46,881 nucleotides of DNA. Origin: a virus. Taxonomy: Duplodnaviria; Heunggongvirae; Uroviricota; Caudoviricetes. Made by a program: the position numbers and the translations under genes. Below are positions 4,037 through 17,288 of this stretch, one piece after another; the first letter of the stretch is position 1; each line of letters begins with the position of its first letter. The stretch lies in IMG/VR virus record IMGVR_UViG_3300018065_000012. One strand, given 5' to 3'. The notes under the pieces were generated by a model. That model was not told where the DNA came from, did no database searches, and saw only the letters and a list, made by a program, of their open reading frames with translations.

Positions 4037-4041
4037 GTTTA

Positions 4042-4117: not shown

Positions 4118-4127
4118 AAAAATAATT

Positions 4128-4261: not shown

Positions 4262-4269
4262 AATTTTTC

Positions 4270-4346: not shown

Positions 4347-4355
4347 AGTTTACGT

Positions 4356-4430: not shown

Positions 4431-4433
4431 TTT

Positions 4434-4520: not shown

Positions 4521-4628
4521 AATAATTTTTTGATAAAGTGCAATAGGAAAGGAGAAACAACAAATGCTTGATCTCACTTGTACCAAAGGGGGTCTGCCAT
4601 GTTAGAGCCTTAACGAAAGGAGCTAAAC

Positions 4629-5018
4629 ATGAGCAGAACCTTCAAGAAGTACCCACGGCACTGGTATAGGCGTCCAAGCGGACGTAAGAGAGCGCTGGTG
4701 AATGGGGTAAGGAAACGGGCTGTGCCTCCCGACCCTTACGATGATATTCACCCCGACAGACAGTGCTTTAGTGCAGACAAAGTTGGTTTGGAGTTGCACA
4801 AGTTGGGATGGAGCAACGAAAAGATTGCCAAGCGTTTGAGTTGGAGATTCAAAGTTCCTTACTTGGTGATTTGGCACAGCATTATCCCCGACAAACCGTT
4901 TGATTGGTGGTGGTCTTGCAAGTGTAAGGAATGCAATGAAAAATACCAAGCTTGGCGGGAGTGGCGCGGAGGAATGCGTCTTTATTCTTGGGATGAGTTG
5001 GCAGTGGAACGCGGCTGA
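4629..5018 (+). CDS. hypothetical protein (basic N-terminus, Trp/Cys-rich)
   Basis: ATG with AAAGGAG SD; 129 aa; no motif recognised. Confidence 0.5.
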   Translation: MSRTFKKYPRHWYRRPSGRKRALVNGVRKRAVPPDPYDDIHPDRQCFSADKVGLELHKLGWSNEKIAKRLSWRFKVPYLVIWHSIIPDKPFDWWWSCKCKECNEKYQAWREWRGGMRLYSWDELAVERG

Positions 5019-5036
5019 GACAAGGAAGAATAGCGG

Positions 5037-5119
5037 TGTGACGAAACTGGTAAACGTGCATGGCTTAGAACCATGTGCCCTTTGTGGGCTTGAGGGTTCG
5101 ACTCCCTTCACCGCTACCA
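5037..5119 (+). tRNA. tRNA-Leu(UAG), class II
   Basis: Acceptor AGCGGTG/CACCGCT, anticodon stem CATGG/CCATG loop CUUAGAA, variable arm TGCCCTTTGTGGGCT, T-arm GAGGG-TTCGACT-CCCTT, A73, CCA. Confidence 0.8.
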
Positions 5120-5135
5120 TTTGAGGAAAGAGCAA

Positions 5136-5894
5136 ATGACAGATATCATTGTTCTGACTCACAACAAGGAAGAGAAAACCTGTCGTTGTTTTGAATCCAT
5201 TGCGTTGAATACAAAAAATTATCGGGTGCTTTGGGTTGACAATGGCTCAGAAGAAGCAAGCATTCAAAAGGTTTTGCCGTTTGCTGAAAAGCTTGAAAAC
5301 TTTCGCTTGATGCGCAACAAGGAAAATGAAGGGTTTTCAAAAGGGGTCAATTGCGCCTTGCGTCTTTTCTTGTTTGACGGATTATCTGATCACCTTATCT
5401 TGCTGAACAATGACGTTGTTGTGACGAAAGGTTGGCTTGATCATTTGATTGCTGCGATGAAGAAATCAGGTTTGGATGCAATTGGCCCAGTGACATCAGA
5501 CAATTGTCAACAAAGCCTTGAAGCATTACGGCCTCAATTGAGTAGAAAATTGCCGGAGTTCACGGACGAAACGACAGAGGAAAAAGCGAGAATATTATAT
5601 GAGGACGCAGGTAGTGCAGTTTATCCGGTGACTTCAATCTTGACTTTTTTCTGTGTGTTGTTTCGCAGGGAAACGGTTGAACAAATCGGGTTGCTTGATG
5701 AAAACATTTTCGCCTACGGTGAAGATAACGATTATTGTGAGCGAATGAAACGCACGGGGAAGAAAATGGGATTAGCTGTTGGAATTTACGTTGAGCATGA
5801 TCACGGCGCAACGGCTCAGTTGTTTGGAGACAGCTGGAAAGAGAAACAAATGAAAAAGGCTTCGGCGTATATCCAGCAGAAATATAATCTTTAG
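5136..5894 (+). CDS. Family 2 glycosyltransferase (GT-A fold)
   Basis: IIVLTHN...VDNGS...LLNNDVVV... and YGEDNDYCERM (DxD/ED motifs typical of GT2). ATG 5136 with GAGGAAAG SD; the ORF-track frame opens at TTG 5121. Confidence 0.7.
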   Translation: MTDIIVLTHNKEEKTCRCFESIALNTKNYRVLWVDNGSEEASIQKVLPFAEKLENFRLMRNKENEGFSKGVNCALRLFLFDGLSDHLILLNNDVVVTKGWLDHLIAAMKKSGLDAIGPVTSDNCQQSLEALRPQLSRKLPEFTDETTEEKARILYEDAGSAVYPVTSILTFFCVLFRRETVEQIGLLDENIFAYGEDNDYCERMKRTGKKMGLAVGIYVEHDHGATAQLFGDSWKEKQMKKASAYIQQKYNL

Positions 5895-5981
5895 GCGTTG
5901 TGGTGAAACTGGCAGACACGCATGATTCAGGGTCATGTTCCCTTTTTGGGAGTGAGGGTTCGACTCCCTCCAACGCCACCA
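5894..5981 (+). tRNA. tRNA-Leu(CAG), class II
   Basis: Acceptor GGCGTTG/CAACGCC, anticodon stem CATGA/TCATG loop UUCAGGG, variable arm TTCCCTTTTTGGGAG, T-arm GAGGG-TTCGACT-CCCTC, A73, CCA. The first G overlaps the upstream stop codon. Confidence 0.8.
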
Positions 5982-5983
5982 TC

Positions 5984-6058
5984 GGCCCTATGGAGTAATC
6001 GGAAACTCACCAGATTCTCAGTCTGGAATTCAGGGTTCGAGTCCCTGTAGGGTCACCA
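5984..6058 (+). tRNA. tRNA-Glu(CUC)
   Basis: Acceptor GGCCCTA/TAGGGTC, D GAGT/ACTC, anticodon stem CCAGA/TCTGG loop UUCUCAG, T-arm CAGGG-TTCGAGT-CCCTG, A73, CCA. Confidence 0.8.
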
Positions 6059-6089
6059 GCTTCGGATTATGAATTGCTTAAAAGATAAA

Positions 6090-6166
6090 GGGCGATTAGC
6101 TCAGCTGGACAGAGCACTTGCTCGACAAGCAAGGGGTCAGTGGTTCGAGTCCACTATCGCCCACCA
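6090..6166 (+). tRNA. tRNA-Val(GAC)
   Basis: Acceptor GGGCGAT/ATCGCCC, D GCTC/GAGC, anticodon stem CTTGC/GCAAG loop UCGACAA (C33 is unusual), T-arm AGTGG-TTCGAGT-CCACT, A73, CCA. Anchored to ORF-track frames 6069/6118. Confidence 0.75.
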
Positions 6167-6177
6167 TTGTAGGAATC

Positions 6178-6255
6178 GGACGCGTAGCTCAGATTGGTCA
6201 GAGCACTTCTCTTACAAGGAAGGGGTCACAGGTTCGAGTCCTGTCGCGTCCACCA
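6178..6255 (+). tRNA. tRNA-Val(UAC)
   Basis: Acceptor GGACGCG/CGCGTCC, D GCTC/GAGC, anticodon stem CTTCT/GGAAG loop CUUACAA, T-arm ACAGG-TTCGAGT-CCTGT, A73, CCA. Confidence 0.8.
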
Positions 6256-6273
6256 AATGAAAGGCGGTGGAAA

Positions 6274-6507
6274 ATGGAAAACAAGGCGCTACCAAAGATC
6301 AAACTACGGGCCGTAAAAGAACCACAAAAAGAAAAGGCTCCAAAGAACACGTATTTGCTCACCATGCGCTTTCCAATCACCGCACTTGACGATGTTGAAG
6401 CGCGCGAACGTGCTTGGAAGCATATGAAGTTTCATAACTTTGTTAAGCTTGATGCAAAGCTTCAACGTGTTCGTGACAAGAAGGCACCGGAGAAAGTAAA
6501 TCTATGA
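6274..6507 (+). CDS. hypothetical protein (77 aa, Lys-rich)
   Basis: ATG 6274 after the tRNA. The ORF-track entry 6118-6507 begins inside tRNA genes, so the shorter start was chosen. Confidence 0.45.
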   Translation: MENKALPKIKLRAVKEPQKEKAPKNTYLLTMRFPITALDDVEARERAWKHMKFHNFVKLDAKLQRVRDKKAPEKVNL

Positions 6508-6932
6508 TTACAGTGACGTGTAATGGCTGTTTTGACGGGTTGCATCCCGGCCACTTGTTTTATCTTGGTTATTGTCGAGCGCAAGGTGACCGTTTGGTCG
6601 TTGGGATCAATTCCGATGAATACATAGCCAACAAGAAAAGAACAAAGCCGTATTTTGATGCTAAGCAACGTAAAGAAGTATTGCTGGCGCTCAACATTGC
6701 TGAAGATGTAATTGTGTTTGATGAACCGAATCCAAACGAATTCATCCGTAAGGTTCATCCGCAAGTGCATTGTACGGGTGAAGAATACGGCTATGAATGT
6801 GCTGAGTCAGTAATTTGTAATGAGCTTGGAATCAAATTGGTATTGGTTCCAAGAACGGCAATATGGTCAACGGGAAGTTTACCGTTGATTGGAATGAAAT
6901 GGGTTGCTGATTTTATGAATAGCGGAAAATGA
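6504..6932 (+). CDS. Nucleotidyltransferase of the HldE/RfaE domain II type (heptose-1-phosphate adenylyltransferase-like or cytidylyltransferase)
   Basis: VTCNGCFDGLHPGHLFYL is the HxGH nucleotidyltransferase signature as in RfaE/HldE and TagD. ATGA overlap with the upstream gene. Confidence 0.7.
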   Translation: MITVTCNGCFDGLHPGHLFYLGYCRAQGDRLVVGINSDEYIANKKRTKPYFDAKQRKEVLLALNIAEDVIVFDEPNPNEFIRKVHPQVHCTGEEYGYECAESVICNELGIKLVLVPRTAIWSTGSLPLIGMKWVADFMNSGK

Positions 6933-6946
6933 ACGTGGAGGGGAAA

Positions 6947-7306
6947 ATGGGCAAAAACTCGCAAGATAAAGGTGATTTGAGCAAGGTTATGATCATAGGT
7001 GCCTTGATGAAGAAAGACAAAAAGGTACTTGATACAATTGGAGAAAATCACAGATTTGATCTTGCGTTTTATGAAGAAGGGACAAGATGTTTCAAAACGG
7101 TTCAATGCAAAACAGGACAGTACAAAAACGGTTGCGTGATTTTTCCTACTTGTAGTGTTGTCAAGAATTCCAAAACTGGAAAACACGAAAGAAGGACTTA
7201 TAAAGGTCAAGTGGACTTTTTTTGGAGTGTATTGTCAAAAGAAAGAAAAGTGTTATCTTGTCCCGGAGAAAATTGCCGGTCAATCTTACACGTACTTAAG
7301 AGTTGA
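6947..7306 (+). CDS. hypothetical protein
   Basis: ATG 6947 with GGAGGGG SD (ORF-track frame from 6929); ends at 7306. Confidence 0.45.
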   Translation: MGKNSQDKGDLSKVMIIGALMKKDKKVLDTIGENHRFDLAFYEEGTRCFKTVQCKTGQYKNGCVIFPTCSVVKNSKTGKHERRTYKGQVDFFWSVLSKERKVLSCPGENCRSILHVLKS

Positions 7307-7363
7307 AAAACCAAAAGTCAAATGCAACAGGATAAACCGAGCTGAAGATTATGAATTATAATC

Positions 7364-7455
7364 GGGGGGATGGCTGAGCGGCTTAAAGCGCACGGTTGCT
7401 AACCGTGTGGGCGTTAGTAGCGTCTCGTGGGTTCGAATCCCACTCCCCCCGCCAT
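7364..7455 (+). tRNA. tRNA-Ser(GCU), class II
   Basis: Acceptor GGGGGGA/TCCCCCC, anticodon stem CACGG/CCGTG loop UUGCUAA, long variable arm, T-arm GTGGG-TTCGAAT-CCCAC, G73, CCA. Confidence 0.8.
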
Positions 7456-7460
7456 TCAAG

Positions 7461-7521
7461 GAGGGCTAAACCAGTGAGGTGTTAAAGCCTCCGCAGGTTC
7501 GAATCCTGTCCCCTCCGCCAC
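7461..7521 (+). pseudogene. 61-nt tRNA-like mini-element (acceptor helix, T-arm and CCA, but no D-arm)
   Basis: GGAGGG(C)...GCAGG-TTCGAAT-CCTGT-CCCCTCC-G-CCA. Interior has a GAGG-UGUUAAAG-CCUC hairpin. Too short for a tRNA. Confidence 0.3.
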
Positions 7522-7542
7522 TTTCAAAGAAAGGAGACAAGT

Positions 7543-7698
7543 GTGTCAGATGCCAAAAAGTCTCGCAAACTGGAACGCATCAAAAGGCGCATGGAAAACG
7601 TCGTTGACGACTGCGAATCGCTTTTGAAGATTTGCAATGGCGACTTGCGCATGAAAGAATTGCGGGACAAAGCACTTGAGTTTTACAAGCTTATTTAA
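7543..7698 (+). CDS. small helical hypothetical protein (51 aa)
   Basis: GTG start 5-6 nt after AAAGGAGA. ...SRKLERIKRRMENVVDDCESLLKICNGDLRMKELRDKALEFYKLI*. The stop abuts tRNA-Ser(UGA). Confidence 0.35.
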   Translation: MSDAKKSRKLERIKRRMENVVDDCESLLKICNGDLRMKELRDKALEFYKLI

Positions 7699-7789
7699 GG
7701 AAGGTTGGCAGAGTGGTTGAATGCGCTGGTTTTGAAAACCAGTGGGCGTCAAAAACGTCTCATGGGTTCGAATCCCATACCTTCCTCCA
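7699..7789 (+). tRNA. tRNA-Ser(UGA), class II
   Basis: Acceptor GGAAGGT/ACCTTCC, anticodon stem CTGGT/ACCAG loop UUUGAAA, long variable arm, T-arm ATGGG-TTCGAAT-CCCAT, U73, CCA. Anchored to ORF-track TTG 7705. Confidence 0.8.
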
Positions 7790-7803
7790 TATATGAAATT
7801 GAT

Positions 7804-7944
7804 ATGAGACAAAACTTGACTTTGACTGACCGGATTTGTATTGTTGTCTTTGTATCGTTGATGATTCTGATGCAACCATTATGGGTTGCGTTGAGAATTC
7901 TTCAATGGTTGATCCGGTTTTGGAAACCTGACTTTCATTGGTAA
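7804..7944 (+). CDS. small hydrophobic protein (46 aa, single TM helix)
   Basis: MRQNLTLTDRICIVVFVSLMILMQPLWVALRILQWLIRFWKPDFHW; in frame with ORF-track entry 7705-7944, starting after the tRNA. Confidence 0.4.
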   Translation: MRQNLTLTDRICIVVFVSLMILMQPLWVALRILQWLIRFWKPDFHW

Positions 7945-7947
7945 TGT

Positions 7948-8024
7948 GTGCCCGTGGCTCAAATGGATAGAGCACCTGACTACGGATCAGGAGGTTGTAG
8001 GTTCGAGTCCTACCGGGCATGCCA
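7948..8024 (+). tRNA. tRNA-Arg(ACG)
   Basis: Acceptor GTGCCCG/CGGGCAT, D GCTC/GAGC, anticodon stem CCTGA/TCAGG loop CUACGGA, T-arm GTAGG-TTCGAGT-CCTAC, G73, CCA. Confidence 0.8.
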
Positions 8025-8041
8025 ACTCAAAGGAATTGCAA

Positions 8042-8122
8042 ATGAAATTCTTTGATGGAACATGGGGATGTTTGATTTGGATTGTTTTGATAGGCGGTTT
8101 ACTGGTTTACTACTTGGCCTGA
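8042..8122 (+). CDS. tiny hydrophobic ORF (26 aa)
   Basis: AAAGGAA SD then ATG. MKFFDGTWGCLIWIVLIGGLLVYYLA*. Confidence 0.25.
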   Translation: MKFFDGTWGCLIWIVLIGGLLVYYLA

Positions 8123-8134
8123 TTGGAATTCTAT

Positions 8135-8211
8135 GGTGAGAGTAGCTCAGATGGTAGAGCGTCTGGTTGTGGTCCAGAAAGTCGCGGGTTCAAGTCCCGT
8201 CTCTCACCCCA
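8135..8211 (+). tRNA. tRNA-His(GUG) with genomically encoded G-1
   Basis: G-1 pairs with C73. Acceptor GTGAGAG/CTCTCAC, D GCTC/GAGC, anticodon stem TCTGG/CCAGA loop UUGUGGU, T-arm GCGGG-TTCAAGT-CCCGT, CCA. Confidence 0.8.
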
Positions 8212-8232
8212 ATATCAACGAAAGGATGAAAT

Positions 8233-8430
8233 TTGAAATGGATAATCTTAATCCTGTTCATGTATATGATAATTGCTATGATATTTTTTCTGCATGAATG
8301 TTCTAAAATACAAAAGCATGTTCCGCCAAAACGTCTTCGACACTGTTCGGTTTACAGGACGCTTCAATGGTTTGAAGCAATTGTTCGAAGCGTTTTATGG
8401 CCGGTTGTGTTGATATTGAATATCTTTTAG
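8233..8430 (+). CDS. hypothetical small membrane protein (65 aa, TTG start)
   Basis: ORF-track frame. Strongly hydrophobic N-terminus (WIILILFMYMIIAMIFFL). Confidence 0.3.
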   Translation: MKWIILILFMYMIIAMIFFLHECSKIQKHVPPKRLRHCSVYRTLQWFEAIVRSVLWPVVLILNIF

Positions 8431-8520
8431 GAAGGGTGGCTGAGCGGCTTAAGGCACTGGTTTCGAAAACCAGCGGACGCCAAAAGCGTCCCGTGGGTTC
8501 AAATCCCATCCCTTCCTCCA
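8430..8520 (+). tRNA. tRNA-Ser(CGA), class II
   Basis: Acceptor GGAAGGG/CCCTTCC, anticodon stem CTGGT/ACCAG loop UUCGAAA, long variable arm, T-arm GTGGG-TTCAAAT-CCCAT, U73, CCA. Confidence 0.8.
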
Positions 8521-8536
8521 TTGTAGGGAACAATCG

Positions 8537-8683
8537 ATGTTCGCTTGGTTTAAGAAATTGTTTTGTAAGAAAGAGGAAGCGCCAGAAGTAGTGGGCTTGA
8601 AAAAGTTTGAGCATCACGCTGAAATCACACTTGAATATAGCGATGGCAAAAGGGTAACACTTTGCGTTCGCAAAGGAGAATAA
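8537..8683 (+). CDS. small hypothetical protein (48 aa)
   Basis: ATG 8537. MFAWFKKLFCKKEEAPEVVGLKKFEHHAEITLEYSDGKRVTLCVRKGE*. Confidence 0.35.
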   Translation: MFAWFKKLFCKKEEAPEVVGLKKFEHHAEITLEYSDGKRVTLCVRKGE

Positions 8684-8758
8684 TCATGGATCATTCAGTT
8701 ACTTCCCGGAGCGGCGAAAGCACGATGGGGCGCAGGCCGCGTGAACCGGGAGGGATTT

Positions 8759-9016
8759 ATGAATCCAGAACGTCGGAGAAAAGGGTTGCTGAAGGTTTGG
8801 AAACTGATGCGGATTTGGCGTAATTATCATGATGGCGATAAAGAATACGCCAATGATGGGTTGATTGCGCAAGGGCATGAGAAAAACCGGAAGCCGTGCT
8901 CTTGTATGATGTGTTGCAATCGTCGCCGTTCAGGTTTTAGTAAGGGAAAAGAAAAGCTTACAAGACAGGAGCGAAAATCAGAAAACAGTTTCAAGGATCA
9001 ACTGGATGAATTGTAG
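8759..9016 (+). CDS. hypothetical basic protein with a Cys cluster (85 aa)
   Basis: ATG 8759 after GGGAGGG (ORF-track frame from 8741). CSCMMCC motif. An alternative out-of-frame 45-aa ORF at 8686-8823 with AAAGGAG SD overlaps it. Confidence 0.45.
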   Translation: MNPERRRKGLLKVWKLMRIWRNYHDGDKEYANDGLIAQGHEKNRKPCSCMMCCNRRRSGFSKGKEKLTRQERKSENSFKDQLDEL

Positions 9017-9104
9017 AGGGGTGTGGTAATTGGTAGCCAGCTGGTTTGGAACACCAGTGTGCCCTAATAAGGCATTGCGGGTTCAAATCCCGTCCCCTCT
9101 GCCA
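9015..9104 (+). tRNA. tRNA-Ser(GGA), class II
   Basis: Acceptor AGAGGGG/CCCCTCT, D TGGT/GCCA, anticodon stem CTGGT/ACCAG loop UUGGAAC, long variable arm, T-arm GCGGG-TTCAAAT-CCCGT, G73, CCA. Confidence 0.75.
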
Positions 9105-9118
9105 CTTTTGAACGATGC

Positions 9119-9194
9119 TGAGGGATAGCTCAATTGGTAGAGCACTTGGCTCTGGTCCAAGCGGTTGCAGGTTCGAATCCTGTTCCCTCTGCCA
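9119..9194 (+). tRNA. tRNA-Gln(CUG) (U1/U72 unpaired, G73)
   Basis: Acceptor TGAGGGA/TCCCTCT, D GCTC/GAGC, anticodon stem CTTGG/CCAAG loop CUCUGGU, T-arm GCAGG-TTCGAAT-CCTGT. Confidence 0.75.
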
Positions 9195-9199
9195 TTTTA

Positions 9200-9274
9200 T
9201 GGCCCGTAGTATAATTGGCAATACACAAGGTTTTGGTCCTTGTATTCCACGTTCGAGTCGTGGCGGGCCAGCCA
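9200..9274 (+). tRNA. tRNA-Gln(UUG) (U1-A72, G73)
   Basis: Acceptor TGGCCCG/CGGGCCA, D GTAT/ATAC, anticodon stem CAAGG/CCTTG loop UUUUGGU, T-arm CCACG-TTCGAGT-CGTGG, CCA. Confidence 0.8.
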
Positions 9275-9276
9275 AC

Positions 9277-9354
9277 GGGACGGTAGCTCAATTTGGTTAG
9301 AGCATCTGCCTTTTAAGCAGGAGGTTGTGGGTTCGAGTCCCACCCGTCTCACCA
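9277..9354 (+). tRNA. tRNA-Lys(UUU)
   Basis: Acceptor GGGACGG/CCGTCTC, D GCTC/GAGC, anticodon stem TCTGC/GCAGG loop CUUUUAA, T-arm GTGGG-TTCGAGT-CCCAC, A73, CCA. Anchored to ORF-track TTG 9325. Confidence 0.8.
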
Positions 9355-9372
9355 ATCTTGAAAGGAGGAACA

Positions 9373-10317
9373 TTGAAGTTTTTTGTAACAGGCGTCTATG
9401 GATTCATCGGCAGTTGCTTTGCAAGAATGTTGATTGAAGAAACTAATCACACGGTTGTTGGTTTTGGCCGGAACACTGATCAAAGAAATAAAGGCCGAAT
9501 CAAAAGCATTATCAGCAGTGAACGTTTCAACCTTATCAATGGCGACCTTGCTGGGGATATAAGTGGATTGCTTGAAGGCGTTGACGTTGTAGTTCATTTT
9601 GCGGCAAAGACTTTTGTGGACCATTCAGTGAAAGACCCTGAACCGTTTGTCCGCAGCAATATTATTGGCAGTTATCAACTTTTGGAACAAGCACGGATTT
9701 ACAAGCCCAAACGCTTCATTCACATTTCAACGGATGAAGTGTATGGCGCGTGTTTAGAAGGGTCTTACAGTGAGGATTCTCCGCTGAATCCGACAAATCC
9801 ATATTCAGCGACAAAAGCAGCTGCGGACGTTTTGGCAACAGGCTACTTTCATACGTACGGGGTGAACGTTATTATCACTCGCACTGAAAACAATGTTGGT
9901 CCGTTCCAGCACCCGCAAAAGGTTCTCCCGACGTTTGTAAGGAAAGCATTGGCTGGTGAGTTGTTGCCGGTTTACGGGGATGGAAAGCACGTAAGACAAT
10001 GGCTTCACGTAAAAGACCATTGCTATGCCGTTTTGCTTTTGATTGAAAAAGGACAGATTGGAGACATTTATCATATTGCTGGCTCAAAGGAATTGCAAAA
10101 CATCGAGTTGGCAAAAATGGTTTTGAAAATCTTGAAAAAGCCGGAAGACGCTTTTGAGTTTATTCCGGACAATGAGATTCGGCCCAATCATGACCGGCGT
10201 TATGCGATTGATTCATCCAAGCTTCGAGCGTTGGGTTGGGAACCAAAGTTTGATCGTGATGAAACCATTCGCAAAACGGTTGAATGGTACGTTAAAAATC
10301 AAAACTGGTTGGTGTAA
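9373..10317 (+). CDS. NDP-sugar 4,6-dehydratase (dTDP-glucose 4,6-dehydratase/RfbB-like, extended SDR)
   Basis: KFFVTGVYGFIGS Rossmann motif, YSATKAAAD (YxxxK), VRQWLHVKDHC. Start chosen at TTG 9373 after AAAGGAGG. The ORF-track frame (9325) opens inside tRNA-Lys. Confidence 0.75.
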   Translation: MKFFVTGVYGFIGSCFARMLIEETNHTVVGFGRNTDQRNKGRIKSIISSERFNLINGDLAGDISGLLEGVDVVVHFAAKTFVDHSVKDPEPFVRSNIIGSYQLLEQARIYKPKRFIHISTDEVYGACLEGSYSEDSPLNPTNPYSATKAAADVLATGYFHTYGVNVIITRTENNVGPFQHPQKVLPTFVRKALAGELLPVYGDGKHVRQWLHVKDHCYAVLLLIEKGQIGDIYHIAGSKELQNIELAKMVLKILKKPEDAFEFIPDNEIRPNHDRRYAIDSSKLRALGWEPKFDRDETIRKTVEWYVKNQNWLV

Positions 10318-10322
10318 ATTAT

Positions 10323-10399
10323 GGACGTATAGCTCAGTTGGTTAGAGCACTCGCCTGATAAGTGAGAGGCCGCTGGTTCGAATCCAGCTACGTCCACCA
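10323..10399 (+). tRNA. tRNA-Ile(GAU)
   Basis: Acceptor GGACGTA/TACGTCC, D GCTC/GAGC, anticodon stem CTCGC/GTGAG loop CUGAUAA, T-arm GCTGG-TTCGAAT-CCAGC, A73, CCA. Confidence 0.8.
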
Positions 10400-10603
10400 A
10401 CTTTATTTGCTCTCATAGGAAGGTCAGGACACCACTGCTGAAGGTAGGAGACAATTGTCGCTCGCACTACTGAGGGTGCAACACAAATAGGCTCCGTTTG
10501 GACTGGGTGAGCAGCAGGAAGGAGCGGGTTGTGGCAAAGATGAATGACAGATTGGAAAACAAAATCCTGCCTACTGTAGAATCTGTCGATGAGAGCATTT
10601 TGT

Positions 10604-10681
10604 GGGTGCGTAGCAAACATTGGTTTTGCAGCGGACTCTTAATCCGTCTTAATGTGGGTTCGATTCCCACCGCACCTACCA
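10604..10681 (+). tRNA. tRNA-Lys(CUU)
   Basis: Acceptor GGGTGCG/CGCACCT, D GCAA/TTGC, anticodon stem GCGGA/TCCGT loop CUCUUAA, T-arm GTGGG-TTCGATT-CCCAC, A73, CCA. Anchored to ORF-track 10498 frame. Confidence 0.75.
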
Positions 10682-10686
10682 ACTTT

Positions 10687-10762
10687 GCTCCCGTAGCTCA
10701 GCTGGACAGAGCGGGACTTTCCTAAAGTTCAGGTCGCAGGTTCGAATCCTGCCGGGAGTACC
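10687..10762 (+). tRNA. tRNA-Arg(CCU)
   Basis: Acceptor GCTCCCG/CGGGAGT, D GCTC/GAGC, anticodon stem GGACT/AGTTC loop UUCCUAA, T-arm GCAGG-TTCGAAT-CCTGC, A73, CCA. Confidence 0.8.
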
Positions 10763-10765
10763 AAA

Positions 10766-11188
10766 ATGATGATTGAAGAAAAACATAAAGACCTTTTTAC
10801 AGTGAGTGATGATTATCACCTTGCTCATTGTATCGCTACTGACATGAGAATGGGCGCTGGAATTGCGTTGCCAATGCAAAAGAAATTTAGATTGAGGGCG
10901 AAAATAAGAAACAGCAACGAATCCATATTGAGTCCAACTTGTATTTTGACTGGTCGCGTTTTCAATTTGATTACAAAACGGCGCAGCAGCGGAAAGCCGA
11001 CCTATCAATCGCTTCAAGCAAGCTTAGTAAAGATGCGTGAAATCATAGAACAAAAAGGCGTTACAAAACTTGCAATGCCAAAAATTGGTTGTGGCCTTGA
11101 TCGTCTTAATTGGGCCGTTGTGCGTCAAATGCTTGAAGATATTTTTTATGGTTTGGAGATCGAAATACTGGTTTGCGTTTGGAAATGA
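10766..11188 (+). CDS. Macro domain protein (ADP-ribose binding or processing)
   Basis: HLAHCIATDMRMGAGIA ... VTKLAMPKIGCGLDRLNW match conserved macro-domain motifs. Confidence 0.6.
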   Translation: MMIEEKHKDLFTVSDDYHLAHCIATDMRMGAGIALPMQKKFRLRAKIRNSNESILSPTCILTGRVFNLITKRRSSGKPTYQSLQASLVKMREIIEQKGVTKLAMPKIGCGLDRLNWAVVRQMLEDIFYGLEIEILVCVWK

Positions 11189-11191
11189 AAT

Positions 11192-11267
11192 GGGGGATTA
11201 GCTCAGTTGGGAGAGCGTTTGACTGGCAGTCAAAAGGTCACGAGTTCGAGTCTCGTATCCTCCACCA
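11192..11267 (+). tRNA. tRNA-Ala(GGC) with G3-U70
   Basis: Acceptor GGGGGAT/ATCCTCC, D GCTC/GAGC, anticodon stem TTTGA/TCAAA loop CUGGCAG, T-arm ACGAG-TTCGAGT-CTCGT, A73, CCA. Confidence 0.8.
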
Positions 11268-11272
11268 CTTGT

Positions 11273-11349
11273 GCTCCCGTAGCTCAAATGGATAGAGTCC
11301 CTGTCTTCTAAACAGGATGTTGCAGGTTCGAGTCCTGCCGGGAGTGCCA
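11273..11349 (+). tRNA. tRNA-Arg(UCU)
   Basis: Acceptor GCTCCCG/CGGGAGT, D GCTC/GAGT, anticodon stem CCTGT/ACAGG loop CUUCUAA, T-arm GCAGG-TTCGAGT-CCTGC, G73, CCA. Confidence 0.8.
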
Positions 11350-11363
11350 ACTTGGAGAACAAA

Positions 11364-11555
11364 ATGGAATTCAGATGGTGGCCGTGCAGGTTGGCAAATG
11401 ATTTTTGTGAGTTGTTGAAAATTCCCGCATATGTTTTAGCATTGCCACTGAAACTGATTGAACATTATCAAGAGACGATTTGGAAAAATTACGCAACTCA
11501 ATCTGACCGGGCGTATACGACAACGGAAATTTCAGATGAAGATTTGGCGGTGTAG
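11364..11555 (+). CDS. hypothetical protein (63 aa)
   Basis: ATG 11364 (ORF-track TTG 11352). The stop lies inside the first 10 nt of the next tRNA. Confidence 0.4.
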   Translation: MEFRWWPCRLANDFCELLKIPAYVLALPLKLIEHYQETIWKNYATQSDRAYTTTEISDEDLAV

Positions 11556-11623
11556 CTCAGTCTGGACAGAGCATCGGATTCATACCCCGAAGGCCACTGG
11601 TTCGATTCCAGTCACCGCTACCA
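11546..11623 (+). tRNA. tRNA-Met(CAU) (initiator-like anticodon stem ...CCCGA; could be Ile2/k2C type)
   Basis: Acceptor GGCGGTG/CACCGCT, D GCTC/GAGC, anticodon stem TCGGA/CCCGA (A31/C39 mismatch) loop UUCAUAC, T-arm ACTGG-TTCGATT-CCAGT, A73, CCA. Confidence 0.7.
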
Positions 11624-11628
11624 ATTTT

Positions 11629-11716
11629 GGGCGAGTGGAGGAATTGGTATACTCGCGGGATTTAAAATCCCGTGGACTAATAGTCCATGAGGGTTCGAGT
11701 CCCTCCTCGCCTACCA
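11629..11716 (+). tRNA. tRNA-Leu(UAA), class II
   Basis: Acceptor GGGCGAG/CTCGCCT, 3-bp D-stem GAG/CTC, anticodon stem CGGGA/TCCCG loop UUUAAAA, variable arm TGGACTAATAGTCCAT, T-arm GAGGG-TTCGAGT-CCCTC, A73, CCA. Anchored to ORF-track ATG 11687. Confidence 0.8.
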
Positions 11717-11734
11717 CTTGACAGGAGAATTTCA

Positions 11735-12289
11735 ATGCCCAACGAGTATTTGTTTGAGTGCCGCGTTCCGAAACATTACTTTGTAACGTCTGGAGCAGGC
11801 CAAATAACGCAGGATGCGGGAGCTGATCATTATGAAACAGGTTCCTATGATTTGGCTTTGCTGGATGCTTCAATTGAGAACTTCAACGTTGTGAAGTATA
11901 CCAGTGTAGTCCCTAAAAATGCGGAAGAAATCCCTTTGGATGAAGCCAAAAAGTATTTCCGTCACGGCGCGGTGCTTGAATGCATCATGGCTCAAATGAA
12001 CGGCCCGCAAGGTGAACATCTTTGCGCTGGCGTAGGAAGATGCAAATGCAAAGTCAATGGAAGCTACATCGGTGGCTTTGCGGCTGAGTATGAAGGCAAT
12101 GCTTCGACAGAGAAAGCAGAAAAAATCCTTGAAAAAGATTTACAAGGCATTGTTGACAGGCGCTATGGAAAAAGTGGTGAAATGTTTGATCTTGAGTTCA
12201 CAATAAGAGATTTGGTTGTTGACGACGAATACGGCACTGTTTTGGCCGCTATTTGCTTTATCACGTACGAATTTCCGGTGATAGGATAG
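11735..12289 (+). CDS. Pyruvoyl-dependent arginine decarboxylase (PdaD)-like
   Basis: Recalled similarity to archaeal PdaD: VPKHYFVTSGAGQ (cf. NTVSLVAGSSEG), ALLDASIENFNVVKYTSVVP (cf. ALLNAGIGNVNLIRISSIMP, Ser-Ser self-cleavage region), AAEYEGNASTEKAEKIL (cf. IMEYEGKCSKKEAEK). ATG 11735 with GGAGA SD; the ORF-track frame begins inside the tRNA. Confidence 0.5.
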   Translation: MPNEYLFECRVPKHYFVTSGAGQITQDAGADHYETGSYDLALLDASIENFNVVKYTSVVPKNAEEIPLDEAKKYFRHGAVLECIMAQMNGPQGEHLCAGVGRCKCKVNGSYIGGFAAEYEGNASTEKAEKILEKDLQGIVDRRYGKSGEMFDLEFTIRDLVVDDEYGTVLAAICFITYEFPVIG

Positions 12290-12294
12290 AATGT

Positions 12295-12381
12295 GGCAGC
12301 GTGGTGAAATTGGTATACACGCGTGATTCAAAATCACGTCCGGGCAACCGGGTGAGGGTTCGAGTCCCTCCGCTGCTACCA
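12295..12381 (+). tRNA. tRNA-Leu(CAA), class II
   Basis: Acceptor GGCAGCG/CGCTGCT, anticodon stem CGTGA/TCACG loop UUCAAAA, variable arm TCCGGGCAACCGGGT, T-arm GAGGG-TTCGAGT-CCCTC, A73, CCA. Confidence 0.8.
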
Positions 12382-12388
12382 AACTAAA

Positions 12389-12595
12389 ATGAAAGACAAA
12401 AGCGTAATCCCAGAAGGCATTTATTGTCACGGCGTAAATGGCGTCTGCCCATATTGGTCCTCAAGGGAGGACAAACCAGAGCAGGAAAATGGATACTGTT
12501 CTTTTCTTGAAATGGGCGATTGGAACGATGAGCCTTTGACCCTTTTGTGGGATCAAGTGAAAGAATGCGGAATAAATGATGATTGGCCAACATAG
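12389..12595 (+). CDS. hypothetical protein (68 aa, Cys/Trp-containing)
   Basis: ATG 7 nt after the tRNA CCA. The stop lies inside the next tRNA. Confidence 0.45.
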   Translation: MKDKSVIPEGIYCHGVNGVCPYWSSREDKPEQENGYCSFLEMGDWNDEPLTLLWDQVKECGINDDWPT

Positions 12596-12661
12596 CTCAA
12601 TTGGCAGAGCAGGGCACTTGTAATGCTCAGGTTGTGGGTTCGAATCCCTCTGTTGGCTCCA
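12586..12661 (+). tRNA. tRNA-Thr(UGU)
   Basis: Acceptor GCCAACA/TGTTGGC, D GCTC-AATTGGCA-GAGC, anticodon stem GGGCA/TGCTC loop CUUGUAA, variable AGGTT, T-arm GTGGG-TTCGAAT-CCCTC, U73, CCA. Confidence 0.8.
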
Positions 12662-12677
12662 CTTCAAAGGGGAAATT

Positions 12678-13073
12678 ATGATTTGGATTTTTCTTATTGT
12701 TGCCGTTTATATTTTCATTGATGTTTGTATCCGACAACGCCCAAAAAAGGTTGATATATACAAGCAACATTTGATAGCAGACAGGGAACAAGCAGAAGAC
12801 ATTTCGAGAAAACGAGAAGCCATTTGGGAAAGGTCAAAGGAAAAGAGAGAAAAATACGAGAAGGAAATCAAAACACAACAAAAAATTGGGAGAAATCTTT
12901 TCAAGGCGTTTGAGCTGATTGGTTGGTTTCGAGACGAACATAACAGACGATGGATTACGCCTTGCGGTGTTTTAGAAGACGTTGAGATTTATTTTTCTAC
13001 GAAACTTTATGTTCATACAGCGATTTACCTTTTGAAGAAGAAAAACTTGTTTGCTGCCGTGGCTCAGTGGTAG
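12678..13073 (+). CDS. membrane protein (N-terminal TM helix, charged coiled C-terminal part)
   Basis: MIWIFLIVAVYIFIDVCI followed by a K/E/R-rich region. The last 21 nt overlap tRNA-Thr(GGU). Confidence 0.5.
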   Translation: MIWIFLIVAVYIFIDVCIRQRPKKVDIYKQHLIADREQAEDISRKREAIWERSKEKREKYEKEIKTQQKIGRNLFKAFELIGWFRDEHNRRWITPCGVLEDVEIYFSTKLYVHTAIYLLKKKNLFAAVAQW

Positions 13074-13127
13074 AGCACGTCCTTGGTAAGGACGAGGTCA
13101 TGGGTTCGAGTCCCATCGGCAGCTCCA
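13053..13127 (+). tRNA. tRNA-Thr(GGU)
   Basis: Acceptor GCTGCCG/CGGCAGC, D GCTC/GAGC, anticodon stem CGTCC/GGACG loop UUGGUAA, T-arm ATGGG-TTCGAGT-CCCAT, U73, CCA. Confidence 0.8.
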
Positions 13128-13167
13128 AGCCTTTATCACCCCGCTATTTACGTTATGCAAATCATGG

Positions 13168-13244
13168 GCCACCTTAGCACAATTTGGCGGTGCGCTGCTT
13201 TCGTAAGGCAGAGGTTCCCGGTTCGAATCCGGGAGGTGGCTCCA
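13168..13244 (+). tRNA. tRNA-Thr(CGU)
   Basis: Acceptor GCCACCT/AGGTGGC, D GCAC/GTGC, anticodon stem CTGCT/GGCAG loop UUCGUAA, T-arm CCCGG-TTCGAAT-CCGGG, U73, CCA. Confidence 0.8.
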
Positions 13245-13424
13245 TATTTCTCTTTTCTGTAAAATTCCTCACAACGTTCATTCCTTTGTCGCAATTCCAT
13301 TCCTGACAAAAACTTACCAGCAAGAACTATTTTCTATCAATTGTCGCTAACTGCTTCTTTTTTTTTATATTTTGCAGTTAGTAGATGGTATAGACTTCCC
13401 GCGTGGATTTCGTGAGGTCAAAGG

Positions 13425-14399
13425 ATGAAACAATACATTGTTACTGGACGCTTCTTTGCGGGACCGTTGAAGCGATCAATCCCGGTAAATGCATATTTCT
13501 ATGAATATGAGGAACAATCAAAGCTGGTAATGACAAATGCTCCGGACAGTAGCAATTTGTCGAATCAGCTCCTAACAAAATTTAATTACAGCGATGGAGA
13601 TTCAGTAGGTTGGTTCAAAAGCCTTGTTCATGTTCATCATGTTAATTACATTGTCTATCTTCAAGACCTGCCAGAAAGCGTTTTGGACCTTACGGGTCCA
13701 GATGGTATTCTTGATGCAAGCGATGTAAACAATGATTCGTCCGTAACGGGAACGACGGTCAAGGATGCGCTTGAAAATCTCGCAGCAGGTGCATTGGTCA
13801 TTGTCGACATCCTTGCAAACCGTCCGGCGTTTGGAGTTCAAGGGCGGGCGTTTTGGGCAACAGATACTCAACAATTTTTCATTGATACAGGAACTTCTTG
13901 GGATTTAGTTTCTGGCGGTGGTTCAGGTTTTGTTCTGAATCGAGACTTGGACTATTTCAACGGGAACACTTCACCACTCAGAGCAGATGCAGATGTTTAC
14001 GGCTTTGAAGATGCGGCTTCGTTTCTTCCTTCTGTTGATAATGATGTGATTTTCAAAGTTGCTTCTCAGTTGGCATATGCAAATTTGAATACGACGACGA
14101 TTTTCTTACTCTATTTTATGTCAACGTCTGAAGTGGGAAAGAATATTGTGCTGAAATTTGATTACACTGTACACGACAACGGAGAAGCTTACAATGCGGG
14201 TACGGCTTACAGTTCAAGTCATACAGTTGCGACGCCAAACAATGCAAACATGGCAACGATAACTGCGATTACAATACCAAACGCCAATATCACGTCAAGC
14301 ACGGTAGAAGTCGAATGTCGACTAACGCGTGCGGGAACAGACGTTTCCGATACACACTTAGGTGATTTTATTCTCAAACAGCTCTTGGTCACAGGGTAA
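13425..14399 (+). CDS. putative virion structural protein (324 aa)
   Basis: First gene of the structural block, preceded by a 180-nt intergenic region; Asn/Thr/Ser-rich. No motif recognised. Confidence 0.5.
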   Translation: MKQYIVTGRFFAGPLKRSIPVNAYFYEYEEQSKLVMTNAPDSSNLSNQLLTKFNYSDGDSVGWFKSLVHVHHVNYIVYLQDLPESVLDLTGPDGILDASDVNNDSSVTGTTVKDALENLAAGALVIVDILANRPAFGVQGRAFWATDTQQFFIDTGTSWDLVSGGGSGFVLNRDLDYFNGNTSPLRADADVYGFEDAASFLPSVDNDVIFKVASQLAYANLNTTTIFLLYFMSTSEVGKNIVLKFDYTVHDNGEAYNAGTAYSSSHTVATPNNANMATITAITIPNANITSSTVEVECRLTRAGTDVSDTHLGDFILKQLLVTG

Positions 14400-14414: not shown

Positions 14415-17288
14415 ATGTCATTCAGGGAACGACTCATCGGATCAAGAGTTGACAGCGTAGGTGTACAAGTCTCCGTTGTTGACTCAAGATTGGATTCGGT
14501 TGTTGACTCGCGTGTAGCGATCGTTGACAGTCGAATTCAAGTCGGTGATTCGACGGTTTCGAGCGAGGTAACCTCTGTCGGAGTACAAGTGTCGGTTGTT
14601 GACTCGCGTTTGACCGTCGTAAACACTGAGACTACAACGATTGATTCGCGGGTGACTGTCGTCGACTCCCGCGTGGTTGTAATTGACGACGAATTATCGG
14701 TTGTTGATAGTAAGATTGATGTCATCGATACTGAAGTATCAACGCTTGATTCCCGCGTTGTTGTGGTCGATGACGAAGTATCAGTTGTTGACAGCAAGGT
14801 AACAAGTGGTTTCAACGGGACTGACCTGTCAATTACCAATAGCAAGATTGACAGTATTGGTACTGGCGGTGGCGGCGAATCGACGACACAATCGAAGGTT
14901 GACAGTGTTGGTGTTCAAGTTAGCGCTGTTGATTCACAGCTTGTCGTTACTGATTCTGTTGTTGACGTCATTGACAGCGAAGTTACATCAGTCGGCGTTC
15001 AGGTGACAGCGGTTGATTCTGTTCTAACGATTGTTGACTCCACGATTGTTGTCATCGATAGTGAAGTTACATCTGTCGGAACGCAGGTTTCAACAACTGA
15101 TTCACGGCTTGTTGTCGTCGATTCAATCGTTGATGTTATTGACAGCGAAGTTACGTCTGTCGGTACGCAGGTTTCAACGGTTGATAGTAAGATTGACGTC
15201 GTTGATACTGAATTATCAACGGTTGATTCACGCCTCACGGTTGTCGATTCCCGCGTTGTGGTGATTGACGACGAGGTTTCAACGGTAGGTTCCAACGTTC
15301 TGTCCGCGCATGTTGTAACGGACAGTAAGGTTGACAGTGTTGGAGCGCAAGTCAGCACGGTTGATAGCAAGTCCGACGTACAATCCGGCGCTATCAGCAC
15401 ACTGACTGGCATGGTCGATGCGTTGGATAACAACGTAATGGCCAAGTTAATCGTCCCGCCGGTTATCGTTCGTGACGAGACTTCAACCCGTACGATCAGG
15501 GTTTGGTTGTACCTGTACGATGCTGAAGGTACGATGATGGACCCCGACAGCAATCAAGCGTATTTGGAAGTGCTTGATGAAGCTGGGGCGACGGAACTTG
15601 CTCGTGGGTTGATGACGCGGAACGACATTGGTAGGTACTACAGAGATTGGACCATTGCAACGGGGCAATCACTGGAAGCCTATCAGCTTGTTGCTGACTA
15701 TGACGTAACTGGAAGCACGGTTTACCAGACGCGTTACAGTGAGGTCGTAGACGTTGATCCTGATGTCAGTTCTTCAATTGACAGCGTTGGAACGCAGGTA
15801 TCGGTTGTTGACTCCAGAGTCACGGTTGTCGATTCCCGCGTTGTTGTCATTGATACTGAACTGTCGGTTGTTGACAGTAAGATTGATGTTATCGACGACG
15901 AGGTATCGGTTGTTGATAGTAAAATTGACGTTATCGATACTGAGGTATCGGTTGTCAATTCAACAGTTGTTGTCATCGACAGCGAGATTACATCCGTTGG
16001 TGTTCAGGTTTCTACAACTGATTCCAGACTGGTTGTCGTTGACTCGATTGTTGACGTTATCGACAGCGAAGTTACATCAGTCGGTACACAGGTGACAGCG
16101 GTTGATTCTCGCATTGTTGTCGTTGACGACGAACTATCAACGGTTGATAGTAAGGTTGATGTCATTGATGGCGAGGTTGGCGCTGGTTTTGCAGCAACGA
16201 ACCTGTCGGTCGTTAACAGTAAGATTGACAGTGTTGGCGCTGGCGGCAGTAGCGAAAGCACAACACAGTCGAAGGTTGACAGTGTTGGCGTTCAGGTCAG
16301 TGCAGTCGACTCGCAACTGGTTGTTACCGATTCGGTTGTTGATGTCATTGACAGCGAAGTTACATCTGTTGGCGTTCAGGTTACAGCGACTGACTCACGG
16401 GTTACTGTTGTCGATTCACGGGTTGTCGTCATTGATACCGAACTGTCGGTTGTTGACAGTAAGATTGATGTCATCGACACTGAATTGTCAACGGTTGATT
16501 CGCGGGTTGTCGTCATTGATACTGAACTGTCAACGGTGGACTCCAAGGTTGACGTCATTGATGATGAGGTTTCGGCGCTTAACAGTACTGTACTTTCTGC
16601 CCACACTATCACGGATAGCAAAGTTGACAGCGTGGAAGTGGAAGTTCAAAGCGTTGGGACACAAGTGTCGACAACGGATTCCAGAGTCACGGTTGTCGAT
16701 TCGCAGGTCGTTGTTACGGATAGCAAGGTTGTCAGTGGCTTCAACGGGACTGACTTGTCCGTCACGAACAGTAAGGTTGATAGTTTGGCGTCCGTTGCGG
16801 CGACGTCTGTCCAGAAGGCAGAATTCAGGGCTTATATCTGGACAAATGCAAGTGCCAACCTTGTCGACGGTAGCAATGACTACACGGAAATTGCTGCTGG
16901 AACATCGCAGGAAACAAGCTGGGTTGACGCAGGTATTGTCGCCTCGTTGGTCGTCAATGCGCCTGAATCCGGAACAAAAACGGTCAAGGACTGCGAACTT
17001 GACCTTGGTTGGGCCGGACAGATGGATGCAAACGACGGTGACTCGAAATGGATGGTCGTCACGGGCGGTTCTGCAACGGTTACCAGTGCTGAAGATATTC
17101 CCGGCACAGAGGTTGCAGAAACGACCAGCAAGACCACGCGTTGGCGTACAGGGCAGTATGTTAACGCCAACGAAATGGGCACGATGCCCTTTACCCTCAT
17201 GTTGCTCGGTAAAGTGGACAACGGCGCAGACACAGTGACGCTCACTGGTTTGCTTGGCTCGACGGTTGCAGTTGTTTACGAGGTCTAA
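14415..17288 (+). CDS. Fibrous repeat protein (tail-fibre or whisker-like) built from tandem 11-aa (33-nt) VDS[RK]V-type repeats with a globular C-terminal domain
   Basis: 957 aa. Dozens of ...VVDSRVTVVDSRVVVIDTELSVVDSKIDVID... repeats. Large internal duplication (about 14430-15300 versus 15780-16620). Non-repetitive C-terminus 16800-17288. Confidence 0.7.
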   Translation: MSFRERLIGSRVDSVGVQVSVVDSRLDSVVDSRVAIVDSRIQVGDSTVSSEVTSVGVQVSVVDSRLTVVNTETTTIDSRVTVVDSRVVVIDDELSVVDSKIDVIDTEVSTLDSRVVVVDDEVSVVDSKVTSGFNGTDLSITNSKIDSIGTGGGGESTTQSKVDSVGVQVSAVDSQLVVTDSVVDVIDSEVTSVGVQVTAVDSVLTIVDSTIVVIDSEVTSVGTQVSTTDSRLVVVDSIVDVIDSEVTSVGTQVSTVDSKIDVVDTELSTVDSRLTVVDSRVVVIDDEVSTVGSNVLSAHVVTDSKVDSVGAQVSTVDSKSDVQSGAISTLTGMVDALDNNVMAKLIVPPVIVRDETSTRTIRVWLYLYDAEGTMMDPDSNQAYLEVLDEAGATELARGLMTRNDIGRYYRDWTIATGQSLEAYQLVADYDVTGSTVYQTRYSEVVDVDPDVSSSIDSVGTQVSVVDSRVTVVDSRVVVIDTELSVVDSKIDVIDDEVSVVDSKIDVIDTEVSVVNSTVVVIDSEITSVGVQVSTTDSRLVVVDSIVDVIDSEVTSVGTQVTAVDSRIVVVDDELSTVDSKVDVIDGEVGAGFAATNLSVVNSKIDSVGAGGSSESTTQSKVDSVGVQVSAVDSQLVVTDSVVDVIDSEVTSVGVQVTATDSRVTVVDSRVVVIDTELSVVDSKIDVIDTELSTVDSRVVVIDTELSTVDSKVDVIDDEVSALNSTVLSAHTITDSKVDSVEVEVQSVGTQVSTTDSRVTVVDSQVVVTDSKVVSGFNGTDLSVTNSKVDSLASVAATSVQKAEFRAYIWTNASANLVDGSNDYTEIAAGTSQETSWVDAGIVASLVVNAPESGTKTVKDCELDLGWAGQMDANDGDSKWMVVTGGSATVTSAEDIPGTEVAETTSKTTRWRTGQYVNANEMGTMPFTLMLLGKVDNGADTVTLTGLLGSTVAVVYEV

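Follow-up and report, generated by a model that had tools for sequence, protein, structure and literature searches.

What does a gene for a putative pyruvoyl-dependent arginine decarboxylase do in the middle of the tRNA array of a phage? The question is raised by the IMG/VR virus record IMGVR_UViG_3300018065_000012 (Caudoviricetes), which was analysed as a stretch of 46,881 nucleotides, here called the window. An open reading frame (ORF) at 11735-12289 on the + strand encodes a 184-residue proenzyme of the PvlArgDC family, whose archaeal members are known as PdaD, and its designation as a predicted arginine decarboxylase draws on the reading frame itself, the PF01862 match, an AlphaFold2 model, a Foldseek search and the comparison of nonsynonymous with synonymous change (pN and pS). 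The answer that we consider probable is that this is a phage auxiliary metabolic gene, whose self-cleaving pyruvoyl enzyme would convert arginine to agmatine, and that the host would convert the agmatine to polyamines.

The gene product is a genuine full-length member of the PvlArgDC family. Its match to PF01862 (111.3 bits against a cut-off of 22.7, E 5.5e-32) extends over residues 11-176 and over positions 1-161 of the 161 in the profile, and no other Pfam family was found in the protein apart from a weak DUF7362 match below the cut-off (E 0.17). When PDB sequences were searched with phmmer, the sole matches were to the PvlArgDC of Methanocaldococcus jannaschii (1n2m and 2qqd, E ~1e-5). An AlphaFold2 model computed from a 30-sequence alignment reached a predicted local confidence (pLDDT) of 95 and a predicted template-modelling score (pTM) of 0.89, and all 12 of the PDB hits that Foldseek returned for it at E <=1e-3 were chains of the M. 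jannaschii enzyme, the best with E 1e-13 and template-modelling scores of 0.72 relative to the query and as much as 0.86 relative to the target. Neither approach pointed to the AdoMetDC fold, as Pfam gave PF01862 and the fold search PdaD structures only. The phage protein thus has its Pfam family, fold and size class in common with the archaeal enzyme (MJ0316; PDB 1MT1, 1N2M, 2QQC, 2QQD).

The catalytic residues of the family are intact in the phage protein. Ser57 aligns with the pyruvoyl-precursor serine of the M. jannaschii enzyme, Ser53, and is invariant in 30 family members; the codons of Thr56-Ser57 (11900-11905, + strand) mark the predicted autoserinolysis site, YT-SVVP, aligned with Ser52-Ser53. 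The residue ahead of the cleavage serine is Thr or Ser across the family alignment, and the phage protein differs from the M. jannaschii enzyme in having Thr-Ser in place of Ser-Ser. The chlamydial family member AaxB shares the Thr-Ser site, in a motif (IENFN..YTSV) similar to that of the phage protein. Asn51 (11885-11887, + strand) corresponds to Asn47, a residue of self-processing and catalysis, by alignment to 2qqd, the N47A mutant, in an invariant column. Asp39 (11849-11851, + strand) aligns with Asp35 in a column conserved in at least 90% of members and invariant in the closer set; Asp35 is reported to bind the guanidinium group (Tolbert et al. 2003). Glu118 (12086-12088, + strand), at least 90% conserved, lies in the segment AAEYEG that aligns with MEYEG of M. 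jannaschii and is the counterpart of Glu109, the catalytic and cleavage-assisting acid of that enzyme (PMC2720952). Cleavage at the predicted site would yield a small beta chain of 56 residues and a large alpha chain of 128 residues carrying an N-terminal pyruvoyl group derived from Ser57, as in M. jannaschii. Autocatalytic cleavage and specificity for arginine are predictions. A further difference from the archaeal enzyme is an extra loop at residues ~24-35 (QITQDAGADHYET), which characterises the bacterial subfamily.

Selection on the gene is purifying: in comparison with the copy of a sibling phage, which is 74% identical, pN is 0.185 and pS 0.816, with synonymous sites saturated in this comparison. 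Judged from its sequence, the enzyme is apparently functional. The reading frame starts with an ATG at 11735 and ends with a stop codon at 12287-12289, and a Shine-Dalgarno-like AGGAG can be read on the + strand at 11723-11727, 7 nt 5' of the ATG. A longer stop-to-stop version of the ORF opens at 11687. As this position falls within tRNA-Leu(taa), the ATG at 11735 is taken as the real start; the alignment of homologs to the phage protein begins only at residue ~6-10.

Despite the common fold, the phage protein stands at some distance from archaeal PdaD. The NCBIfam equivalog models TIGR00286 and NF009064 score it at 57.4 bits (cut-off 106.95) and 60.2 bits (cut-off 207), respectively, and by this measure it is not an ortholog-level match. 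HMMER, run exhaustively on 1.84 billion representative proteins, retrieved just 446 relatives at E <=1e-3, and in all 232 full-length relatives among those retrieved identity to the M. jannaschii core was at most about 39%. The nearest relatives are unnamed metagenome proteins, several of them from contigs of 100-440 kb, and the very same protein occurs on several contigs of different samples, the longest of 338 kb. Across GTDB, with one genome per species, 352 loci matched. The closest cellular homolog is that of Dethiosulfatarculus sandiegensis (55% identity), followed by those of a Desulfarculaceae metagenome-assembled genome (MAG; 51%), many Methanothrix MAGs (46-50%) and Sorangium (46-48%), with lower identities in Desulfovibrionaceae, Chlorobium, Omnitrophota and others. 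In sequence terms the phage enzyme belongs to a mostly bacterial subfamily. A preliminary description of this DNA, made from its letters, had proposed a PdaD homolog at exactly these coordinates, and the profile match over the whole length of PF01862 together with the exclusive structural hits to M. jannaschii PvlArgDC bears this out. Its likening of the protein to archaeal PdaD stands for family and fold and fails at the level of the equivalog cut-offs and of the subfamily, which is largely bacterial; the Ser-Ser cleavage site that it had read is replaced by the predicted Thr56/Ser57.

Some observations on the wider family can be added here. Green algae, liverworts (bryophytes) and Selaginella carry homologs that are ~45-52% identical and often N-terminally extended (P0047, P0049, P0051, P0056, P0062, P0067, P0082, P0097), and two giant-virus metagenome bins (L011, L013) also hold PvlArgDC homologs. 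Together, these occurrences hint at transfer between viruses and eukaryotes. Many cellular members, among them those of Methanothrix, Pseudodesulfovibrio, Chlorobium and Desulfovibrionaceae (L093, L114, L116, L120; P0116, P0117), have a hydrophobic N-terminal extension resembling a signal peptide, so that they may be located outside the cytoplasm; no such extension is present in the phage copies. In a Methanotrichaceae MAG (L160, 6446-8620) the Methanothrix homolog has a gene for the archaeal chromatin protein MC1 to either side and adjoins a type I CRISPR-Cas locus.

The window is phage DNA. It is syntenic with the IMG/VR viral genome UViG_3300018080_000129 (L007/L009), the sibling phage mentioned above, in which a 960-residue protein is 48% identical and paralogs of ~250 residues are 46-81% identical to their counterparts in the window. 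Nearly all credible genes lie on one strand, with HNH and PD-(D/E)XK nucleases interspersed, and large repeat-rich proteins and tandem paralog sets are encoded, with PHROG matches to tail fibre and tail needle and an Mtd-like domain. ARAGORN found 47 tRNA genes, all on the + strand. Among their 44 different anticodons, which between them serve all 20 amino acids, are that of tRNA-Ile(tat) and the CAU shared by two tRNAs, so that the phage has an almost full set for decoding. The first block of this array (2585-13244, + strand, 32 tRNAs) contains the decarboxylase gene and the second spans 33892-39571 (+ strand). On either side the gene is bordered by tRNA genes supported by both ARAGORN and Rfam: tRNA-Leu(taa) (11629-11716, + strand) ends 18 nt ahead of the start codon and tRNA-Leu(caa) (12295-12381, + strand) begins 5 nt past the stop codon, an order of decarboxylase and tRNA-Leu(caa) that is also retained in the sibling phage. 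Promoter-like and terminator-like sites flanking the gene did not exceed the shuffled background, and a dedicated promoter or terminator was rejected on these grounds. Probably, the gene and the tRNAs share a transcript, from which tRNA processing would then free its mRNA.

Relatives of the gene were found on at least 13 IMG/VR contigs, and it has been kept in several distinct jumbo-phage lineages. Other relatives have surroundings typical of jumbo phages; in a 436-kb IMG/VR genome, for example, the gene is adjoined by genes for DnaB, primase, DNA polymerase A and DNA methyltransferases. In several large viral contigs homologs lie near tRNA arrays (L022, L023, L015, L018 and L007, within 10 kb), and in three of these (L022, L023, L015) a phage-encoded tmRNA is nearby; in L015 there is also a tRNA bearing the anticodon CTA, tRNA-Pyl according to ARAGORN. 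Another contig (L012) carries two tandem ORFs of the family, at 9271-9942 and 9965-10603.

What the enzyme is used for can be approached through the neighbours of its relatives. In five genomes the Sorangium homologs have a divergently oriented neighbour of the arginase/agmatinase family (PF00491), which is the classic pairing of an arginine decarboxylase (ADC) with SpeB. In the sibling phage (L007) a 318-residue gene of the SpeY-like/deoxyhypusine synthase (DS) family (12562-13518) lies 2 kb downstream of the decarboxylase gene in the same tRNA island, and its product is 65-69% identical to Desulfovibrionaceae proteins. A DS-family gene is also found directly upstream of PvlArgDC in the IMG/VR contig L019 (6374-7345 and 7449-7976, respectively), which carries giant virus-like genes (DUF723, DUF5889, Tpt1, DnaJ). 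In bacteria, SpeY joins two molecules of agmatine to form N1,N9-bis(guanidino)homospermidine (G44G; PMC13625781), from which a ureohydrolase or iminohydrolase releases homospermidine (PMC13625781, Li et al. 2026), and in Caldilinea aerophila SpeY and SpeB are clustered with a pyruvoyl ADC of the PdaD type (PMC13625781). The proximity of a PdaD-fold ADC and SpeY in L007 and L019 resembles this route; the window differs in that SpeY and the ureohydrolase were not found in it, so that the host or other phage genes would be needed. The members of the family that are biochemically characterised in the literature consulted, PdaD of M. jannaschii and AaxB of C. pneumoniae and C. trachomatis, are arginine decarboxylases (PMC2720952, PMC9992855). 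As the contexts in Sorangium, L007 and L019 fit a producer of agmatine, a self-cleaving pyruvoyl-dependent arginine decarboxylase is the best explanation for the phage protein. Agmatine production for polyamine synthesis, already suggested in the preliminary description, is accordingly the reading best supported by the agmatinase-family neighbours in Sorangium and the SpeY neighbours in the sibling phage and the giant virus-like contig, by which it is inferred.

Beyond these loci the association is sparse. SpeY-like proteins 42-57% identical to that of the sibling phage occur in 54 IMG/VR contigs (L026-L079), some of which could be of bacterial origin, through mis-binning or as fragments, or derive from the flanks of prophages. 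An arginase-family gene is found a few kb from SpeY in at least three of them (L028, L048, L049), and PvlArgDC within 10 kb in just two. Among 80 cellular PvlArgDC loci, only one had a DS homolog, a distant one, nearby. For the window itself, Pfam revealed no polyamine genes among the ~40 ORFs, neither tblastn nor hidden Markov model searches found SpeY, and tblastn with the agmatinase-family seed from Sorangium found no member of that family; the Pfam table of the 10 kb upstream of the window likewise contains no polyamine genes. The check for speB/agmatinase proposed in the preliminary description thus came out negative for the window and these 10 kb. No 338-kb or 182-kb contig is among the 120 best relatives of the sibling's SpeY, which is suggestive of there being no close SpeY copy on the genome of the window phage. 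As genes for later polyamine steps are missing from the window and the 10 kb upstream, the phage presumably depends on host enzymes for the steps after agmatine. Alternatively, agmatine would be handled by genes elsewhere in the phage genome or be used as such.

Based on these comparisons, the following sequence of events can be proposed. The gene would be expressed during infection from within the tRNA array, and its product, having no signal peptide, would fold in the cytoplasm as a proenzyme that probably forms a trimer. The proenzyme would cut itself between Thr56 and Ser57, converting Ser57 to the covalently bound pyruvoyl cofactor, and the mature enzyme would decarboxylate L-arginine to agmatine, whereby this auxiliary metabolic gene would divert host arginine into an agmatine pool. 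Candidates for the host enzymes that would take up this pool are agmatinase, agmatine deiminase together with NCPAH, or SpeY together with a ureohydrolase, and the pathway could end in putrescine and spermidine or, with N1,N9-bis(guanidino)homospermidine as intermediate, in homospermidine. Such polyamines could serve heavy translation, DNA replication and the packaging of a genome of more than 300 kb. In favour of this proposal, phages benefit from raised levels of arginine-derived polyamines and encode other polyamine enzymes (PMC9992855, PMC11898732).

The host is probably an anaerobic bacterium. This is proposed because the tRNA-Tyr of the window (86 nt) is of the bacterial type with a long variable arm, and because genes for the anaerobic ribonucleotide reductase NrdD and its radical-SAM activase NrdG lie within 10 kb upstream of the window start (L162, 5984-8600). 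A host within Desulfobacterota could be guessed, since both the closest cellular PvlArgDC and the SpeY of the sibling phage point there. In this respect the phage enzyme differs from archaeal PdaD, as its probable host is bacterial and agmatidine synthesis would be irrelevant there.

Several points weigh against polyamine supply through agmatine. The protein falls well short of both PdaD equivalog cut-offs, its identity to the crystallised M. jannaschii enzyme is low, about 22-30% (~22% over the structure alignment), and no assayed member of this subfamily was found in the literature. Agmatinase, agmatine deiminase, SpeY and spermidine synthase were not found in the 46.9-kb window and the 10 kb upstream, and the host's capacity to use agmatine is an assumption. 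In addition, the neighbours of the gene are not the same in any relative examined; a conserved gene neighbourhood was rejected, as five related phage loci had dissimilar neighbours, and the gene behaves like a mobile 'moron' without a fixed partner. Because of the sub-cut-off equivalog scores and the low identity to the crystallised enzyme, the substrate could have shifted to ornithine or lysine. Such a pyruvoyl decarboxylase with a new function, whose substrate would be ornithine, lysine or some other basic amino acid or peptide instead of arginine, would agree with the remoteness of the whole subfamily from archaeal PdaD, with the signal-like N-terminal segments of many cellular members, which hint at non-canonical roles, and with the precedent of phage AdoMetDC homologs that have switched to ornithine or arginine (PMC9992855). 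We nevertheless consider it unlikely, as the counterpart of Asp35 and all catalytic residues are conserved, the agmatinase-family and SpeY neighbours of the relatives fit agmatine as the product, and a non-arginine activity of the PdaD fold was not found reported in the literature consulted. The opposite extreme, a recently captured passenger without function or an inactive pseudoenzyme, could be read from the variable neighbours among relatives and the insertion-prone tRNA region, yet it is hardly credible given the intact frame with its own ribosome-binding site, the conservation of all key residues, a pN much smaller than pS among phage copies whose identity has fallen to 55-74%, and the retention of the gene across several distinct jumbo-phage lineages.

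The location of the gene raises a different possibility, namely that agmatine or a direct derivative is itself the end product and acts on the phage translation apparatus rather than as bulk polyamine supply, either by stabilising the 47 phage tRNAs and the ribosomes or as a donor in nucleic-acid modification, be it of tRNA in the manner of agmatidine or DNA hypermodification. The gene itself lies inside a tRNA array, another such array occurs within 10 kb in four of the six closest phage relatives and in six of 17 viral loci, often with a tmRNA, and a tRNA with a CAU anticodon is located ~110 nt upstream; in archaea, agmatidine in tRNA-Ile(CAU) requires agmatine (PMC8503589). The related tRNA-array loci are not independent of each other, as the window and L007 are syntenic, and the position in the array is weak evidence because the tRNA islands of large phages also gather unrelated insertions such as HNH nucleases and glycosyltransferases. 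The tRNAs of the window are moreover bacterial in type, as the long-armed tRNA-Tyr illustrates, the phage tRNA-Ile(tat) decodes AUA without agmatidine or lysidine, and Pfam detected no TiaS-like or other modification enzyme among the window ORFs. A direct role in translation is therefore quite unlikely in our view, and the specific idea of agmatidine synthesis by a TiaS was rejected on account of the bacterial-type tRNAs, the tRNA-Ile(tat) and the lack of a detectable TiaS in the window. Still less probable is a broader version in which the PdaD-fold enzyme belongs to a 'translation-support island', co-transcribed with the near-complete tRNA set (and tmRNA in relatives), and its product acts directly on the translation machinery or nucleic acids: this product could be agmatine or, with SpeY, G44G or homospermidine, and might stabilise or modify phage tRNAs or ribosomes or, in a bacterial setting, be the donor for a modification of tRNA or DNA that would be new. 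Finally, the enzyme could act as an arginine sink or proton-consuming system that depletes host arginine or buffers cytoplasmic pH, in the manner of AaxABC or the enteric Adi system. AaxB, a bacterial member of the family, does work in arginine:agmatine exchange (PMC2720952), but neither a Pfam search of the window nor the precomputed Pfam families for the genes of four related phage loci showed an antiporter or porin, and no data point to an acid-stress setting, which makes this role very improbable.

Chlamydial AaxB is one of the known systems that come near to the predicted phage polyamine enzyme. It is a bacterial member of the same family that cleaves itself at Ser53 and decarboxylates arginine (PMC2720952). 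It differs in that it works best at acid pH and serves acid resistance or virulence; a partner resembling the aaxA porin or the aaxC antiporter was not found in the window by Pfam, nor was any transporter family, such as an arginine:agmatine antiporter would represent, among the window ORFs or the genes of the related phage loci. Functionally, the SpeD homolog of pelagiphage HTVC201P offers a parallel, as it is phage-encoded, pyruvoyl-dependent and converts arginine to agmatine (Li et al. 2023, PMC9992855), and it too has been proposed to raise host polyamines through host enzymes that convert agmatine (PMC9992855). This enzyme of ~122 residues, however, belongs to AdoMetDC/SpeD class 1b, whose fold is unrelated to the PdaD fold of the window protein.

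The enzyme family and the idea of polyamine genes in phages are already established, and the present case extends known biology without a new mechanism. In a survey of polyamine genes across the virosphere, the phage pyruvoyl ADCs were of the AdoMetDC-derived fold only, the PdaD fold was unmentioned, and no SpeY/deoxyhypusine synthase homologs were reported in viruses (PMC9992855). We found no PvlArgDC homolog in 50,697 GenBank phage records by tblastn to E = 1, also with a divergent viral homolog as query, no similar viral structure in BFVD by Foldseek at E <=1e-3, only a chance-level match in PHROGs, and no report of a phage PvlArgDC in full-text searches of the literature. The PdaD fold has thus also been recruited by viruses, as seen on the 13 or more IMG/VR contigs, which include contigs of ~100-440 kb and giant-virus bins, and in at least two viral genomes it lies near SpeY of the agmatine-dependent homospermidine route. 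This widens the set of virus-encoded entry points to polyamines by an additional arginine decarboxylase fold, and it provides a case, open to experiment, in which a phage would supply a pathway built on agmatine, perhaps in hosts that are anaerobic sulfate reducers. The phage setting, the other element of the preliminary description, rests on the 47 one-strand tRNAs, the PHROG tail matches, the synteny with UViG_3300018080_000129 and the identical protein on contigs of up to 338 kb.

Other features of the window deserve mention. Within the second tRNA block, an 86-nt tRNA (35953-36038, + strand), tRNA-Cys(gca) in the ARAGORN annotation, scores 60.6 bits with the Rfam model for tRNA-Sec, RF01852 (gathering score 47), and its predicted fold has an acceptor stem of 8 bp, a D stem of 6 bp, a long variable arm and a T stem of 4 bp. 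It is a phage-encoded tRNA with a cysteine anticodon and a selenocysteine-like or 'allo-tRNA' architecture, and it resembles the selC*/tRNA-ReC genes of some Deltaproteobacteria. Between tRNA genes of the first block, a 140-residue protein (10766-11188, + strand) matches PHROG 335 'phosphatase' (E 1e-24), and near the window start a 315-residue protein of the caspase family (Peptidase_C14) is encoded (156-1103, + strand).

Six tandem paralogs of ~250 residues (21886-26499, + strand), four of which are found in the sibling phage, match the second domain of the Bordetella phage tropism determinant Mtd as well as a PHROG tail fibre family, and after them come three tandem paralogs, each of 411 residues, with right-handed beta-helix domains (26820-30569, + strand). 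Both sets may be alternative receptor-binding or depolymerase cassettes. A 957-residue protein (14415-17288, + strand) consists almost entirely of short repeats of the type V(V/I)DS(R/K/E), and its PHROG matches are to the tail needle and to families of unknown function. At the far end, a very long ORF with collagen-like G-X-Y repeats (units of GNQGDxG...), interrupted by a non-repeat domain, covers ~42600-46881 (+ strand) and continues past the end of the window; in this region GC content rises from ~0.43 to 0.53, with a strong GC skew.

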